The position numbers and the translations under genes are program-made. Of a stretch of 64,000 nt of DNA, positions 2,349 to 59,606 are shown piece by piece (the stretch's first letter is position 1; each line of letters starts with the position of its first letter). The notes beneath the pieces were generated by a model. The model searched no databases. It had not been told where the DNA came from and worked only from the letters and a program-made list of their open reading frames with translations. Source of the stretch: an uncultured Chloroflexia bacterium (lineage in GTDB: Bacteria > Chloroflexota > Dehalococcoidia > Dehalococcoidales > RBG-16-60-22); NCBI GenBank assembly GCA_963727315.1, contig CAVSFE010000002.1:407723-471722 (forward strand). Reading direction: 5' to 3'.

Positions 2349-3257
2349 CTATTTATCAAGCTGCTCGTAAAGCTTATTGCGGGCGCGAACGGCCTTCTTG
2401 ACACCCATGTCCCGCCGCGCCTTGAAGAAATTGAACTCGTCGTCCTCGAAGTGGATATTCGTGCCCATGGTGTGCATCATAAAATGATTGGTCAGGCCGC
2501 TCGTGATACCCATAATATCGTAGATGACCTGTTTAGAAGCCTTGCCCATCGCAATGCCATCGAAGGGGAACTTCGCAAAACCCTCCGCGTACCGATTGAC
2601 CTCCTCTTCCAGCTTGTCGGCGGGGACGGCGCGGTTAATGAGGCCGATACGGGCGGCCTCCTTGCCGTCCAGCATCCGACCGGTCAGACAGAGGTCGAGG
2701 GCATTGGTCAGGCCGCAGCGCAGAATCATTATCGGGGTGATGGTAAGATTGGGCATGCCCAACCGCACCTCGACTTCCCCGAACTGGCAGTCCTCGGCCC
2801 CGACAATGAAGTCGCACAGCAGATACATGTCCATGGACGCGCCGAGCAGGTAGCCATGCGCCTGGACGATAGTCAGCTTGGGGAAAAAGAGGAGCTTCTG
2901 GGCGCACTCGTAAAAAAGCTTCCGGTCGAACTTGAGGCGGTGGCGGATAGGGGTGCGGGGGGCTTTTTCACCGGGCTTCGGCTCCTTCCAGCCGTAGACG
3001 AAGCCAACCTCATGTAAAGGGGCACCGGCGGCCAGAGCACGGCCGGCGCCTTTAATTATAAGCACCTTGAGGTCGTCGGCCTCCTCGACGACGGCCAGAG
3101 CTTTCCAGAAGTCCTTGACGCCGGTGTTCATGGTATCAGGGTCGTTCAGCGTAATGCGGGCGACATAGCCGCTCCTCTCGTAGATAACGTCTTTAAAATC
3201 CCCGGCTTTTTTAAACTTAAGCATAGAACCTACCCTCTCCTTGAGATTGTGACTCAC
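2349..3257 (-). CDS. enoyl-CoA hydratase/isomerase (crotonase) family protein
   Basis: VARITLNDPDTMN...LIIKGAGRALAAGAPLHEV is a crotonase-fold signature. An alternative start at 3224 (MLKFKK) is possible. Confidence 0.8.
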   Translation of the reverse strand: MSHNLKERVGSMLKFKKAGDFKDVIYERSGYVARITLNDPDTMNTGVKDFWKALAVVEEADDLKVLIIKGAGRALAAGAPLHEVGFVYGWKEPKPGEKAPRTPIRHRLKFDRKLFYECAQKLLFFPKLTIVQAHGYLLGASMDMYLLCDFIVGAEDCQFGEVEVRLGMPNLTITPIMILRCGLTNALDLCLTGRMLDGKEAARIGLINRAVPADKLEEEVNRYAEGFAKFPFDGIAMGKASKQVIYDIMGITSGLTNHFMMHTMGTNIHFEDDEFNFFKARRDMGVKKAVRARNKLYEQLDK

Positions 3258-7638: not shown

Positions 7639-9099
7639 TTACTGATCAAACGGCGGGAGGCCGACGATTTTTCCCCGGCTGAGGCCCCAGAGGTCTTTAA
7701 CGGCGGTATGGTAGTCCGCCTTTTTGCCTTCCAGCTTCTCCCGCTCGGCGATTTTCTGGCGGTGGAAGTCCTTGATTTCTTCAGGGATGGGGAGACTGCC
7801 AAACTCAAGGTAGCGGCAGGCGCCGCGGGCATCCCTAACGCCCAGGACTTTATCCTTAACGTTGATGTTGGGGCTCCACGGGGAATCCAGCACGCCGGAA
7901 TCGACCGCCTTGATGGTGCCGTCGACGATATCGCCATCGCCGAGGTCTAAAATCCTGTCCAGGATGGCCCTGACCTCAGTCTCGGTCACCTTCTCCTCGA
8001 TATCAATATCTTTAATCTCGAAGCCGATTTTTTGCTCGCGGACGACATCGAAAATCCACTTGGCGGCGCGGTAGCTCACCTTATGCGTCTCCGTGGTGGG
8101 AACGCCGGCCCCCTCGTCAATGCTGCGGAGGTCGACGGCGTTAGCCCCGGCCAGCGCGCCGACCATCGAGACATAACTCAGATAGGCGAAAGCGCCGCCC
8201 ATATCCATGGCGACGGGGAAAAGGGGCGTCTGGGCGGGACACGCCCCGACAATCTGACAATCTTTATAGCCGAACTTATCCAGATACTCACGGATGATGC
8301 GCGGGGCAAAGCGAATCCAGGCCATGTCCTGCGCCATGTTGCCCATGCAGTGCACCAGAGGGTATAAAGCCTTCTGGCCCTGAGCCGCGGCGGTAAGCGC
8401 CTCAATGACGAGGGTAACGATATTAACGCTCAGGGGAAAAGGGGCGCTGGGAAGCCAGCCGTGGAGGTCGGTGCAGAGGATAACGCCCCTGTCAGCGTAC
8501 CAACCGACGGTGCCGCTGGTCTCCTGCCACTTCTCCACGAGCTCGCGTATGGTCATTTTCTTGGAATAACTGCCCCAGGTGACGAAGGGCAGGCAGCCTT
8601 CGAAGGTGGTCATGCCGGCGGCGATAGCAATGTCACCGCCGGCGCCGCGGGGACTGAAAGCGGCGTCCACGCTTTCGATGAGCTGGCGGGTCTGCTTCAC
8701 GCCGTGATTAATAATGGGAAAGCCGTTAAGCAGAGGCCGGCCGGTACGGTTGCTCTCCTTCAAAGCCGCCTCGACCTTCTCATACTGACCGAGCCGGGTA
8801 TAACTATCGGTGGTAACGGGAATCAGGACGACGCCAGATTCGCGAAGTCCCTGGCAGAGTTCAATCATTTTTTCCAGGATGGGGGTGCCGGCGCGGGGAA
8901 AAACGCTCATGCGGCCTTCCTCGCTGAGCTTTACCATCACCTTCCACCAGATTTTCGAGTCGGGCAGGCTTTTCTGGTAAGCCACCGCCTCATCGAAGTC
9001 CACCTCTTTGCCGGTGGGCCATTTATCCAGCTCCTCGCGCCGCTTTTTCATCAATAAATCGTCGTCGATGCGCTTGTTCATCATCCTGAGTTTCTTCAT
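7639..9099 (-). CDS. glmE: glutamate mutase epsilon (E) subunit-like protein
   Basis: From the ATG at 9099: MKKLRMMNKRIDDDLLMKKRREELDKWPTGKEVDFDEAV...FPRAG...DSYTR...LLNGFP..., collinear with clostridial GlmE as I remember it. The start sits 5 nt after the upstream stop. The longer track ORF (to 9189) overlaps the SDR. Confidence 0.8.
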   Translation of the reverse strand: MKKLRMMNKRIDDDLLMKKRREELDKWPTGKEVDFDEAVAYQKSLPDSKIWWKVMVKLSEEGRMSVFPRAGTPILEKMIELCQGLRESGVVLIPVTTDSYTRLGQYEKVEAALKESNRTGRPLLNGFPIINHGVKQTRQLIESVDAAFSPRGAGGDIAIAAGMTTFEGCLPFVTWGSYSKKMTIRELVEKWQETSGTVGWYADRGVILCTDLHGWLPSAPFPLSVNIVTLVIEALTAAAQGQKALYPLVHCMGNMAQDMAWIRFAPRIIREYLDKFGYKDCQIVGACPAQTPLFPVAMDMGGAFAYLSYVSMVGALAGANAVDLRSIDEGAGVPTTETHKVSYRAAKWIFDVVREQKIGFEIKDIDIEEKVTETEVRAILDRILDLGDGDIVDGTIKAVDSGVLDSPWSPNINVKDKVLGVRDARGACRYLEFGSLPIPEEIKDFHRQKIAEREKLEGKKADYHTAVKDLWGLSRGKIVGLPPFDQ

Positions 9100-11447: not shown

Positions 11448-11524
11448 GGCGCATTCGTCTAGCGGCCTAGGACGCGTCCCTCTCAAGGACGAGATCACGG
11501 GTTCGAATCCCGTATGCGCTACCA
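11448..11524 (+). tRNA. tRNA-Glu (anticodon CUC), CCA encoded
   Basis: Manual cloverleaf: acceptor GGCGCAT/ATGCGCT, D arm GTCT..AGGAC, anticodon stem CGTCC/GGACG with loop CT-CTC-AA, T arm ACGGG-TTCGAAT-CCCGT, discriminator A plus CCA. Confidence 0.9.
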
Positions 11525-56604: not shown

Positions 56605-57369
56605 ATGGACTTAGGTTTAAAAGGCAAGGTAGCCCTGGTCACCGGGGCCGGCAGCCAGATAGGCTTTGGGAAGCAGATAGCGCTACTGCTGGCAAAAGAG
56701 GGATGCGACGCCGTGGCTGTTACGGACATCGTCGATGATGTGAAACTCACGGCGGAAGAAATAAAGAAACTCGGCAAGAAATCTATTGCCGTTAAAGCAG
56801 ACATCACCAATCCGTCCGATGTTAGTGCATTGATAAAGAAGGTCATTGATGAATATAAAAAAATAGACATACTGTGCAATGTTGCCGGAGGCATTGCCAG
56901 CCGGGTGCCCTACGACAAAGCAAAACCGGAGGACTGGGACAAGGATATCCGGCTCAATCTCTACAGTATCATGCTCACCTGCCAGGGTGTGCTCCCTGAT
57001 ATGAAGGAAAAGAAAAGCGGCTCCATCGTTAATATCGGCTCGGGGAGCACGCGGATGTACGGCCACGGCGCGGGCAACGCATATGCCATCGCCAAAGCCG
57101 GAGTGGATAACTTTACGAAACAGCTTGCCTTTAACGAAGCCAAGAACGGCATCCGCTGCAACTGCGTCGCCCCCGGCCCCGCCCCGACTAATTTCATACC
57201 GGGCCCGGACAAAAAAGCGATAATAGACATGTTGGCCAAGACGATCCCCATGGGCCGAGGCGCCACCCAGGCCGATATCGCTAATGCCGCGGTATTCTTC
57301 GCCTCCGACCTGTCCAGCTATATTACCGGCCAGGTGCTGCATGTTTCCGGCGGCTCGGTATTGGACTAA
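56605..57369 (+). CDS. SDR family oxidoreductase (tandem paralog 1)
   Basis: VTGAGSQIGFGK and YAIAK. Confidence 0.85.
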   Translation: MDLGLKGKVALVTGAGSQIGFGKQIALLLAKEGCDAVAVTDIVDDVKLTAEEIKKLGKKSIAVKADITNPSDVSALIKKVIDEYKKIDILCNVAGGIASRVPYDKAKPEDWDKDIRLNLYSIMLTCQGVLPDMKEKKSGSIVNIGSGSTRMYGHGAGNAYAIAKAGVDNFTKQLAFNEAKNGIRCNCVAPGPAPTNFIPGPDKKAIIDMLAKTIPMGRGATQADIANAAVFFASDLSSYITGQVLHVSGGSVLD

Positions 57370-57401: not shown

Positions 57402-58199
57402 ATGGACCTCGGATTTAAAGGCAAAATAGCCCTGGTAACCGGCGCCGGCAGCCAGATAGGCTTCGGCAGGGAGATATCGCTCCTCCTCGCCAAAGAAGGG
57501 TGTGAAGCCATCGTCGTCACCGATATTGATATGGAAGGCGTCCAAAAAACGGCGGACGCGGTGAAGAAACTCAGCCGAAAATCCACAGCCATCCGGGCGG
57601 ATATCACGAAAAAACCCGAAGTAGATGCCATGGTCGAGAAGGCGATTAACGAGTACAAAAAAATCGATATCCTCTGCAACGTGGCCGGCGCCATCCTTCA
57701 CAAGGACTATGTGCCACTGGACGAGCAGAAATATGAAACCTGGTCCAGGCAGATGGACATCAACCTTTTCGGCACCATGTACGTCACGCGGGCGGTTCTT
57801 CCCCACATGAGAAAGCAGAAGCACGGCGTTATCGTGAATATAGGTTCCGGCAGCACCCACCAGTACTCTTTCGGCGTGGCTGTTTACGCTATATCAAAAT
57901 ACGCTATCGACCTGTTCACCAAGCAGCTGGCCTACCAGGAAGGGAAGAACGGCATACGTTGCAACTGTATCGCCCCCGGACCGGCGCCAACTAACTTCGG
58001 GGCCGTTCTCAGGGAAGGCATGCCCCCACCCCCTCCGGAACAGTACACAAAAATGCGGGAAGCCATGCTGGCCGGCTTCCCTCTCGGTAGGTTGGGCACA
58101 CCAACGGATATCGCGAATATCACCGTTATCATGGCATCGGACATGACCAACTACATCACCGGGCAGGTAATAAATGTCTCGGGCGGCAACGTGATGTAA
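57402..58199 (+). CDS. SDR family oxidoreductase (tandem paralog 2)
   Basis: VTGAGSQIGFGR and YAISK. It has the same N-terminus as the previous gene. Confidence 0.85.
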   Translation: MDLGFKGKIALVTGAGSQIGFGREISLLLAKEGCEAIVVTDIDMEGVQKTADAVKKLSRKSTAIRADITKKPEVDAMVEKAINEYKKIDILCNVAGAILHKDYVPLDEQKYETWSRQMDINLFGTMYVTRAVLPHMRKQKHGVIVNIGSGSTHQYSFGVAVYAISKYAIDLFTKQLAYQEGKNGIRCNCIAPGPAPTNFGAVLREGMPPPPPEQYTKMREAMLAGFPLGRLGTPTDIANITVIMASDMTNYITGQVINVSGGNVM

Positions 58200-58250
58200 A
58201 AAGCAGGTCATAGTACTTAAATCATAGAGAGAGTTACAGCGAAAACCGAC

Positions 58251-58280
58251 TTGACAATTTTTCGGGGTTGTGGATAAAAT
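58251..58280 (+). promoter_or_regulatory. strong sigma70-like promoter (TTGACA - 18 nt - TAAAAT)
   Basis: The -35 hexamer is perfect and the -10 is 5/6. No protein gene follows before the terminator at 58509. Confidence 0.5.
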
Positions 58281-58287
58281 CTAATGA

Positions 58288-58542
58288 AGCTCGCGGCACA
58301 ACCTGAATAAGCTTCGGGGAGGTGTACAGTGAAGCTTCATGAGCTATTTGGAGTATGGCAGGTGGACTTATGACGCCCTGCCTTGAGTGGGGCGGATAGG
58401 AAGCGGCCTCGTCTCGTAGAAAAACTGGAAGCCGGTCCGACTGAGTCGGACGCCCAGAATGGTGGTGATCACCGAAAGTGAGTCGGGTCCGTACACGTTA
58501 AAGTGTGAGTGGAGGTCGTTTGAAAAAGCGACCTCCACTTTT
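58288..58542 (+). ncRNA. candidate structured small RNA or leader of unknown class (~250 nt)
   Basis: It is bounded by the promoter above and a strong terminator. Several local hairpins are present (AAGCTTC...GAAGCTT, GGCAGG...CCTGCC, GTCCGAC-TGA-GTCGGAC). The only long ORF over it (58459..58701) runs through the terminator and looks spurious. Confidence 0.35.
58509..58542 (+). terminator. rho-independent terminator
   Basis: GTGGAGGTCGTTT-GAAA-AAGCGACCTCCAC is a 13-bp stem with a GAAA tetraloop, followed by TTTT. Confidence 0.75.
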
Positions 58543-58549
58543 CATAGGC

Positions 58550-58579
58550 TTGACAGCCTGCGGGGCGCAAACCTAGAAT
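58550..58579 (+). promoter_or_regulatory. putative promoter of rpe (TTGACA - 18 nt - TAGAAT)
   Basis: Consensus-like hexamers about 45 nt upstream of the rpe start. Confidence 0.4.
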
Positions 58580-58621
58580 ATCGGCAACAGAAGCCCCCGA
58601 TGGATCCTTCAAGGAGGCGCC

Positions 58622-59275
58622 ATGAGCCACCCAATCCGGATAGTGCCGGCGATTCTCACCGACGACCCCGAGGCACTGGCAAAACTGGTCCGCCAGGCTG
58701 AGACCTTTACCGACTATGTCCAGTTCGACGTCATGGATGGGGATTTTGTCCCTTCGCGGAGCGTTTCCTGCCAGCAGATAGCCGGACTGAAAACCAGATT
58801 AAAATGGGAGGCGCATCTAATGGTACGGCACCCGGAGGACTGCCTGGAAGACTTCCGGAAAGCCGGCGCCCGGAAAATAGTCTTCCACTACGAAGCCACG
58901 CCCGACCCGTTGAAAATCATCCGAAAAATCAAGAAACTCGGCATGAAGGCGGGACTGGCGGTCAACCCCGAAACGCCCGTGGCGGCCATAAAACCGCTGG
59001 TAAAGGATTCAGATAGCGTGCTTTTCCTTTCGGTCGACCCCGGTTTTTACGGCGCCAAGTTCATCCCGGAAGTCCTGGATAAAATAACCGCCTTCCGTAA
59101 ACTCTACCCGGAGAAGGACACCGGAATTGACGGCGGGGTCAAGGAAAGCAACATCGGGCAAATCGCCCGCACGGGCGTCGGCGTAATATACGTCGGCAGC
59201 GCTATCTTCTTACAGCCGGACCCCGCCGCGAGCTACCGCCGCCTCAAAAAGCTGGCCGAACCCGGCCCGACTTAA
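58622..59275 (+). CDS. rpe: ribulose-phosphate 3-epimerase family protein
   Basis: IVPAILT...VQFDVMDGDFVP...HLMV...GLAVNP...VDPGF...GIDGGV. RBS AAGGAGG. Confidence 0.8.
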   Translation: MSHPIRIVPAILTDDPEALAKLVRQAETFTDYVQFDVMDGDFVPSRSVSCQQIAGLKTRLKWEAHLMVRHPEDCLEDFRKAGARKIVFHYEATPDPLKIIRKIKKLGMKAGLAVNPETPVAAIKPLVKDSDSVLFLSVDPGFYGAKFIPEVLDKITAFRKLYPEKDTGIDGGVKESNIGQIARTGVGVIYVGSAIFLQPDPAASYRRLKKLAEPGPT

Positions 59276-59285
59276 AAAGTCCCGG

Positions 59286-59606
59286 TTACTGCCCTTTGCC
59301 CTCTTCGGAGCCCCATTTCAGCATTAATTCCTTAAGCCTCTGCCCCAGCTGCGGGCTGGTGCGCAGGCGCTGGATAAAAACGGGGCACCCTTCCAGTAGA
59401 GAGTTCTGCGCCGCCGTCGCCATACTCGACAGGAGGTTCTGCATGCCGCTATCGATCTGCTGGGGGACATTCGTGCCGGGGGTCGCCTGCTCCATCTGGC
59501 GGCGGATATCCTCGGCGGTAAACTTCATCGGTATGACGCAGGCCTTATACCAGGGACATTCCTTGCACTGGACTATCCCGTAGGCTTCGTTCAAAACATC
59601 GTCCAT
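59286..59606 (-). CDS. hypothetical Cys-containing small protein
   Basis: 106 aa. CKECPWYKAC...GCP. Coding-like composition, no family recognised. Confidence 0.45.
   Translation of the reverse strand: MDDVLNEAYGIVQCKECPWYKACVIPMKFTAEDIRRQMEQATPGTNVPQQIDSGMQNLLSSMATAAQNSLLEGCPVFIQRLRTSPQLGQRLKELMLKWGSEEGKGQ

Follow-up and report, generated by a model that had tools for sequence, protein, structure and literature searches.

A conserved small gene of Dehalococcoidia with a 14-codon open reading frame and a covarying RNA structure, best read as a previously undescribed family of dual-function type

The region upstream of rpe in an uncultured Chloroflexia bacterium raises the question of whether about 250 nt bracketed by a promoter and a terminator form a gene and, if so, whether its product is an RNA, a peptide, or both. 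The window (i.e., the whole stretch of 64,000 nucleotides analyzed here) carries tandem paralogous short-chain dehydrogenase (SDR) genes (56605-57369 and 57402-58199, + strand) immediately upstream of this unit. The first-pass annotation had described the unit as having no convincing protein gene and had offered three options, namely a novel small RNA, a dual-function RNA, or a cis-acting leader of rpe. The dual-function RNA fits our results best, and the leader of rpe was not supported. Sediments and aquifers harbor abundant members of the class Dehalococcoidia, which are important for dehalogenation. To our knowledge, almost nothing is known about post-transcriptional regulation in this class.

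The two promoters that had been proposed, one for the unit and one for rpe, were both recovered, as were the terminator with a GAAA loop and the layout of the mini-ORF (Table 1). The unit's terminator was not among the listings of a simple terminator scan. The inferred transcription start site was taken from the onset of conservation. In relatives, the conserved block begins just 3' of the -10 box and stops at the terminator, which bears out the independent promoter-to-terminator unit suggested earlier. Additionally, a strict promoter pattern (TTGAC-N17-20-TAnnnT) was found 45-52 nt upstream of the start codon in 75 of the 158 unique family members listed. The 263-nt + strand folded at -113 kcal/mol (z = -5.4 relative to dinucleotide shuffles), and none of 200 shuffles was as stable, in agreement with the stable folding noted in the first pass. 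The region 58251-58545 is far beyond chance, and positions 58286-58543 (+) are, by these sequence signals, a free-standing small gene with its own promoter and terminator and a predicted transcript of about 260 nt.

Table 1. Features of the small-RNA unit and of its neighbours in the window
Feature	Position	Strand	Remarks
Second SDR gene	57402-58199	+	PF13561/PF00106 matches
Sigma-70-type promoter	TTGACA 58251-58256, 18 nt, TAAAAT 58275-58280	+	11/12 consensus matches
Inferred RNA 5' end, GAAGCU	58286-58291	+	Conservation starts here; pairs with AGCUUC 58333-58338 (codons 2-4), forming H0
SD-sequestering hairpin, CAC..CCUGAA / UUCGGG..GUG	58297-58324	+	Contains SD GGAGG 58318-58322
sORF, GTG start at 58329, 14 codons, TGA 58371-58373	58329-58373	+	Peptide MKLHELFGVWQVDL; 6 nt between SD and GTG
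Hairpin H3, GCCCUGC / GUGGGGC	58375-58393	+	Starts 7 nt past codon 13, 1 nt past the stop
Three-way junction	58402-58493	+	P1 58402-58416 with 58479-58493; P2 58425-58457; P3 58460-58474
Intrinsic terminator	58508-58543	+	Arms 58508-58521 and 58526-58539, GAAA loop, TTTT; 13-14-bp stem
rpe promoter, TTGACA-18-TAGAAT (neighbour, outside the unit)	58550-58579	+	11/12 consensus matches
rpe	58622-59275		PF00834 match

The unit was outside known RNA families, as had been supposed. At the Rfam gathering threshold, nothing except one tRNA was found in the whole window, and a tRNA/tmRNA scan of the window yielded only tRNA-Glu at 11448. At E<=10, the sole Rfam match of the window unit was STnc390 (RF02056), with 33.8 bits vs a gathering score of 50. 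This match spanned 58485-58548, covering the terminator hairpin alone and not the whole model, and it was absent from 16 other family members, none of which matched any Rfam family. A weak whalefall-1 match (24 bits vs a threshold of 37, E = 0.04) in the junction region of one relative (L033, 118-197, +) was not reproduced in other members and is probably due to chance. For 6S RNA, there was no Rfam match at E<=10 in the window and none in relatives. A 6S-like RNA was also rejected on structural grounds, since the consensus is multi-branched (5' domain, hairpin, three-way junction, and terminator) and not a rod of 180-200 nt with a central bubble. In addition, a literature search for the peptide motif 'GVWQVD' found no paper containing it. 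The unit is best read as a member of a family, not described before, of Dehalococcoidia/Chloroflexota small RNAs that carry an sORF and are of the dual-function type.

By its Rpe protein, the window was assigned to Dehalococcoidales. Among 80 rpe loci from species-representative Dehalococcoidales genomes, 48 had a homologue of 58286-58542 on the same strand upstream of rpe. Metagenomes were scanned with a pattern made of the invariant mini-ORF columns and the first three bases of the next hairpin, for which we estimated fewer than one chance match, and matches were found on at least 120 contigs. Together, the genome loci and metagenomes provided at least 162 unique copies. Among the matches listed, there was one copy per window or contig, with the exception of one contig (L143) carrying two. 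GC-rich copies (L095, L120, L121, and L184), as well as L124, retained a long stem, further hairpins, and a terminator past H3, with diverged sequence; the gene next to the L121 copy was closest, among named relatives, to genes of Chloroflexi, Dehalococcoidia, and Anaerolineae.

In the window, the unit lies on the strand of rpe, 79 nt before that gene; this position, together with the linkage of the unit to rpe in those 48 of 80 loci, would suit a cis-acting leader, either a leader-peptide attenuator or a riboswitch, in which the terminator is regulated and the second promoter is spurious. This option is very improbable. In at least 59 relatives (31 genome loci and at least 28 metagenome loci), the unit is separated from rpe by a conserved convergent gene of 97 aa, located on the opposite strand directly past the terminator. 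The product of this gene carries a membrane helix at its N-terminus and matches no Pfam family, and the gene is missing from the window; in one relative (L005, 3417-3710, -), for example, it ends about 20-40 nt from the small-RNA terminator. Many metagenome copies lie far from rpe, with kilobases of downstream sequence and no rpe, and many stand beside unrelated genes (rhomboid, DUF1893, ProRS, LOG-like, MFS, and amidase genes) in either orientation, including on the opposite strand. Moreover, TTGACA directly past the terminator, as in the promoter of rpe, recurs in six rpe-adjacent relatives (L003, L004, L006, L022, L046, and L049). The convergent gene, the unrelated contexts, and rpe's own promoter indicate that the unit is free-standing and that its linkage to rpe reflects synteny, not regulation. 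Regulation of rpe in cis by the unit is largely refuted by this synteny.

The peptide and the RNA also speak against such a leader. The consensus peptide has no repeated residue and no run of a regulatory codon. An attenuator of the trpL/hisL type was rejected on this basis, with the lone Trp replaced by Arg in 26 of the 162 copies listed; in addition, the convergent gene and the variable contexts speak against co-directional genes under its control. A riboswitch was rejected since the junction is kept mainly as structure, with few columns of >=90% identity, the downstream genes are inconsistent, and no Rfam riboswitch matched. The upstream neighbour of the unit also varies among genomes; in one relative (L063), it is, by eye, an opposite-strand gene resembling sodium-dependent transporters. 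Just 3' of rpe, the window carries a 106-aa ORF (59286-59606, -) with CxxC-type cysteines (…VQCKECPWYKAC…, …EGCPVF…). This ORF showed 69-90% identity in 41 rpe loci, belongs to no Pfam family, and encodes a conserved uncharacterized small protein.

For the coding test, we used 46 homologues found via rpe and nhmmer, without using the sORF pattern. All 46 had GGAGG 5-10 nt upstream of an ATG or GTG in the same alignment column, and no indel occurred within the sORF frame or beyond it up to the end of the 5' arm of H3. The length of 14 codons, with a stop at codon 15, was kept in 37 of the 46 homologues and in 118 of the 162 unique copies listed. Column entropy by codon position was 0.41/0.23/0.88, and the pairwise codon differences (synonymous:non-synonymous) were 3226:2669 in frame vs 474:4773 and 395:4746 out of frame. 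Within codons 8-13, variation was confined to third positions, save for the first base of codon 10 (TGG/CGG/AGG). These codon statistics show purifying selection on the sORF at the amino-acid level. The first-pass view of the unit as having no convincing protein gene is contradicted, as the 14-codon ORF is its most conserved part, has a clear coding signature, and is predicted to be translated.

The alternative of a purely non-coding small RNA, in which the mini-ORF would be incidental and never translated, is improbable in the light of these counts. In favor of this alternative are the high degree of structure of the RNA, a terminator of the kind usual for small RNAs, and the burial of the SD and start codon in the 5' structure. 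Nevertheless, the SD and start codon were present in every homologue, in a frame free of indels, and synonymous changes dominated in this frame only; the 3-nt periodicity counts against a non-coding reading since an RNA helix does not yield such a pattern.

The peptide consensus was M-[RK]-L-H-x-[LIVM]-[FYL]-G-V-[W/R]-Q-V-D-x, and residues 8-13 (G-V-x-Q-V-D) were invariant except for position 10 among the 46 homologues. At this position, the ratio of Trp to Arg was 136:26 in the 162 unique copies listed. Codon 10 (58356-58358 in the window) had the sole non-synonymous change in the hexapeptide, from TGG to CGG or AGG with the GG kept, and this pattern may reflect a joint constraint on RNA and peptide. 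Peptide conservation stopped at D13, and residue 14 was hypervariable. The stop codon was TGA in 99, TAG in 34, and TAA in 29 of the 162 unique copies listed; in 44 of the 162 copies listed, the stop at codon 15 was lost and the frame extended for 4-21 unconserved residues (up to 35 aa). Additionally, Leu3 was encoded by CTT in 42 of the 46 homologues, which fits an extra RNA-level constraint on codons 2-4, and the codon for Leu6 varied freely.

Several recoding signals were considered around the stop codon and rejected. A SECIS/selenocysteine reading of the TGA and the following hairpin does not agree with stops that are also TAG or TAA, or are replaced by TGG. A prfB-like +1 frameshift, suggested by the SD-like AGGUGG five nt before the stop, would keep no downstream frame, given the hypervariable codon 14 and an H3 loop of variable length. 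A second ORF starting from an overlapping ATG or GTG near the stop was unconserved.

The structure of the RNA was examined in the same homologues. RNAalifold on the MAFFT alignment recovered three elements rich in compensatory changes, namely the post-stop hairpin H3, the long stem P1, and the terminator, and single-sequence folds recovered P1 closing a three-way junction in nearly all 46, with a long irregular P2 and a short P3. A structure written by hand and counted on the MAFFT alignment (A1) had 86.4% of cells paired, vs 35-45% with the partners slid, and none of 500 shuffles reached this value. Changes on both sides were found at 38 pairs of the whole structure and at 9 of 10 pairs in the terminator stem; those in H3 included G-C to A-U and C-G to U-A. 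By helix, the paired fraction in A1 was 92% for H0, 88-90% for the SD hairpin, 97.5% for H3, 90% for P1, 77% for P2, 85-92% for P3, and 99% for the terminator. The same helices were kept in 106 unique members added from metagenomes, with 84%, 83%, and 98% paired at the same columns for H0, the SD hairpin, and H3, respectively. In a deeper clade (L037), CUCC/GGAG replaced the pairing of the SD hairpin.

A covariance model of the three-way junction (R1) found exactly one copy in the window and one each in 82 of the 99 metagenome loci searched. In the R1 alignment of 81 distinct metagenome members, 89.6% of cells were paired vs at most 41% with the partners slid, none of 500 shuffles reached this value, and changes on both sides were found at 23 of 29 pairs; the fitting of this alignment to the model biases it in favor of the structure. 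P1 contains frequent G-U pairs, which are compatible with the + strand only. Taken together, these alignments show that a covarying three-way junction follows H3 in the predicted RNA. Within the unit, codons 8-13 and the base of H3 are the most conserved in sequence, and the junction is kept mostly as shape. The 3' domain contained few invariant unpaired nucleotides, with no seed region or ligand pocket evident, so that an RNA-level function of this domain is unsupported.

A repeated element, TGAGTCGG, that had been noticed in the interior is present at 58442 and 58479. It has no significance by count (four in the window vs 1.5 expected) and is unconserved in relatives, and its presence follows from helices P2 and P1 of the window itself. 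Between P1 and the terminator, a further small hairpin reached 14% pairing on the columns used, probably in the wrong register, and is not claimed. An attenuator-like switch between GGCAGG (codons 10-11) and CCUGCC was rejected, as it is broken in A109 variants whereas H3 covaries, and no antiterminator competing with the terminator was found on inspection of A1.

In the predicted 5' fold, the helix formed by GAAGCU and codons 2-4 encloses a second one, in which GGG..GUG in the SD region is paired to the anti-SD CAC..CCU. The burial of the SD and start codon in this fold suggests that initiation is gated. Such sequestration is known from the mRNAs of hok, aapA1, and tisB, and the unit might accordingly be compared with a type I toxin-antitoxin locus, in which case the sORF would encode a small toxin, and mRNA structure and an antisense RNA would prevent its translation. 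A convergent neighbour at the 3' end in many relatives would also agree with this comparison, which we consider very unlikely to hold. The 14-aa peptide is charged (R/K, H, E, and D) and too short for a membrane span, and no promoter-like site was present on the minus strand within 58200-58620. Furthermore, the unit occurs as one copy per window or contig with housekeeping-like conservation across the class, and the convergent partner is a protein gene that the window itself does not have. The tail-to-tail layout with the 97-aa gene recalls type I pairs of Bacillus, although its protein is long and not always present.

Our preferred reading, in which we have about as much confidence as doubt, is that the unit is a micropeptide gene of the dual-function-sRNA kind, i.e., a structured RNA that would also be the mRNA for a conserved 14-residue peptide. 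In this proposal, the 5' structure would gate translation by burying the SD and start codon, and a ribosome at codons 13-15 would have to melt H3. The first 13 residues would be the functional product, probably a micropeptide that is released and amphipathic, its L3, L6, F7, and W10 sharing one face. The short message would be stabilized by the 3' junction and the terminator, which would possibly also have an RNA-level activity of their own, by protein binding or base pairing. As is expected of a dual-function small RNA, the unit has the predicted promoter and terminator of an independent transcript.

The micropeptide reading is in line with small RNAs that are known to encode proteins. Spot 42 of E. 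coli is a dual-function small RNA encoding the 15-aa protein SpfP (PMC8916003) and provides a precedent for a very small protein from such an RNA. Like Spot 42, the unit is predicted to be transcribed independently as a short structured RNA, from its own promoter to an intrinsic terminator, and contains a tiny ORF (14 vs 15 aa). Unlike it, the unit shows no sequence or structural homology to Spot 42 and no Rfam match; Spot 42 has proven base-pairing seeds and Hfq dependence, whereas no seed is evident in the window family, in which the sORF is the best-conserved part and has a buried SD. Further dual-function RNAs include SR1/SR1P of Bacillus, SgrS/SgrT, AzuCR, and VcdRP (PMC5013986, PMC8915982, PMC8672173; reviewed in PMC12310071 and PMC12612679). 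These share with the unit a coding part and a separate structured part, both conserved within the lineage, but their peptides have 28-43 aa and their RNA targets are known, whereas the unit of Dehalococcoidia encodes 14 aa. By our comparison, these RNAs, as well as the leader and arrest peptides considered below, are functional analogues and not relatives.

Some features of the sORF do not favor a released peptide. The switch between Trp and Arg at position 10 is odd for a folded or binding peptide, and the unconserved C-terminal extensions in 44 of the 162 copies listed also weigh against one. The end of conservation at residue 13, together with the fixed spacing to H3, would suit a role of the nascent chain at least as well. 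A possible, but clearly less probable, explanation is a regulatory nascent-peptide cassette made of the SD, the sORF, and H3, in which the chain ...G-V-[W/R]-Q-V-D would slow or arrest the ribosome in the exit tunnel at codons 13-15, with the leading edge of the stalled ribosome at the base of H3. In copies of the uORF type, the output would be a coupled gene; in free-standing copies such as that of the window, it would be how the 3' RNA domain folds or how stable it is.

TnaC, SecM, ErmBL/ErmCL, and SpeFL are regulatory leader or arrest peptides. As in these systems, conservation in the unit is packed before a defined codon, with predicted mRNA structure immediately downstream, which is what an arrest peptide would lead one to expect. 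The invariance of residues 8-13 next to a hypervariable residue 14, the tolerance of any stop codon, of its loss, and of extensions, and the lack of indels up to the 5' arm of H3 agree with an arrest of this kind. In addition, H3 stays at a fixed distance of 7 nt past codon 13 despite the movable stop. On the other side, nothing that could be regulated lies downstream in the window and in most members, where a terminator follows, often with a convergent gene behind it, and we found no alternative pairing, conserved in the family, for a stalled ribosome to switch. The unit also differs from TnaC, SecM, the Erm leaders, and SpeFL in its peptide, which has no similarity to theirs, and in having no regulated gene at its 3' end in the window and in most members.

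A gene that could depend on a stall is present downstream only in a minority of copies, as some members of the family are upstream ORFs like the TnaC, SecM, and Erm leaders. These few divergent copies keep only the SD, the sORF, and H3, without the three-way junction; within about 40-100 nt, they are followed by another SD and the beginning of a protein gene, a reuse of the cassette that would fit an arrest or pause. They number about six among the at least 120 contigs (two on L143, and one each on L177, L191, L118, and L082), a proportion that weighs against the nascent-chain explanation for the family as a whole. On L143, each copy lies about 55-60 nt upstream of a gene for a signal-peptide protein. 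In L177 and L191, the stop of the extended sORF overlaps the downstream start (GTGA and TAATG, respectively), a classic sign of translational coupling, and the downstream secreted proteins resemble cysteine peptidases by eye.

Another comparison is provided by the trpL attenuator RNA of Sinorhizobium (rnTrpL) and its 14-aa leader peptide (peTrpL), both of which reportedly act in trans. The unit is similar in that a 14-aa peptide and a terminated small RNA would come from one short transcript. However, rnTrpL precedes trp genes as a true attenuator and contains tandem Trp codons, and the unit has neither a tandem codon nor a fixed downstream gene. Still more tentatively, G-V-[W/R]-Q-V-D and H3 might constitute a new arrest or translation-sensing cassette found across the class in Chloroflexota, acting as a coupled uORF in some genomes and as a free-standing sensor RNA in most, where the stall would control the folding or lifetime of the three-way-junction RNA. 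If so, this would be a nascent-peptide switch with an RNA output instead of a downstream gene, and an arrest sequence of this kind would establish a new sensor family in a phylum with none known.

Within the class, an RNA-seq study of D. mccartyi CBDB1 (2026) describes three abundant intergenic small RNAs without an Rfam match, namely sRNA1 (6S-like, 188 nt), sRNA2 (encoded in the core genome), and sRNA3 (PMC12961961). Compared by their description only, these resemble the unit in being monocistronic and intergenic, with sigma-70-type promoters, and in belonging to the same class; the sORF reported there encodes 23 aa vs 14 aa in the unit (PMC12961961). The main text of a survey of 50 genomes, including that of D. 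mccartyi 195, names only an rdhA motif for the genus.

The unit appears to be among the best-conserved small genes of Dehalococcoidia, and it is missing from Rfam and from annotation. With a predicted peptide of 14 aa, six residues of which show near-absolute conservation, it ranks with the very smallest genes known. The unit also offers a clean test case for telling coding, nascent-chain, and RNA-level functions apart in one short transcript.

Two further observations concern single copies and single elements. The copies on the AT-rich contig L143 (about 8416-8600, +, and about 2946-3100, -, as oriented) are preceded by similar direct repeats (…AATATCGG/TTATCGCC…) and adjoin a pair of genes for a histidine kinase and an OmpR-type response regulator, with a secreted protein next; the pair of copies looks like a small regulon with a common promoter and leader. 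In the terminator (58508-58539; A1 columns 257-284), the 5' arm is purine-rich and SD-like, with GGAGG, GGGGG, or GAGGG in 133 of the 152 unique members listed, and the 3' arm is CCUCC-like in 116 of the 152, so that the 5' arm is a near-repeat of the sORF's own SD.
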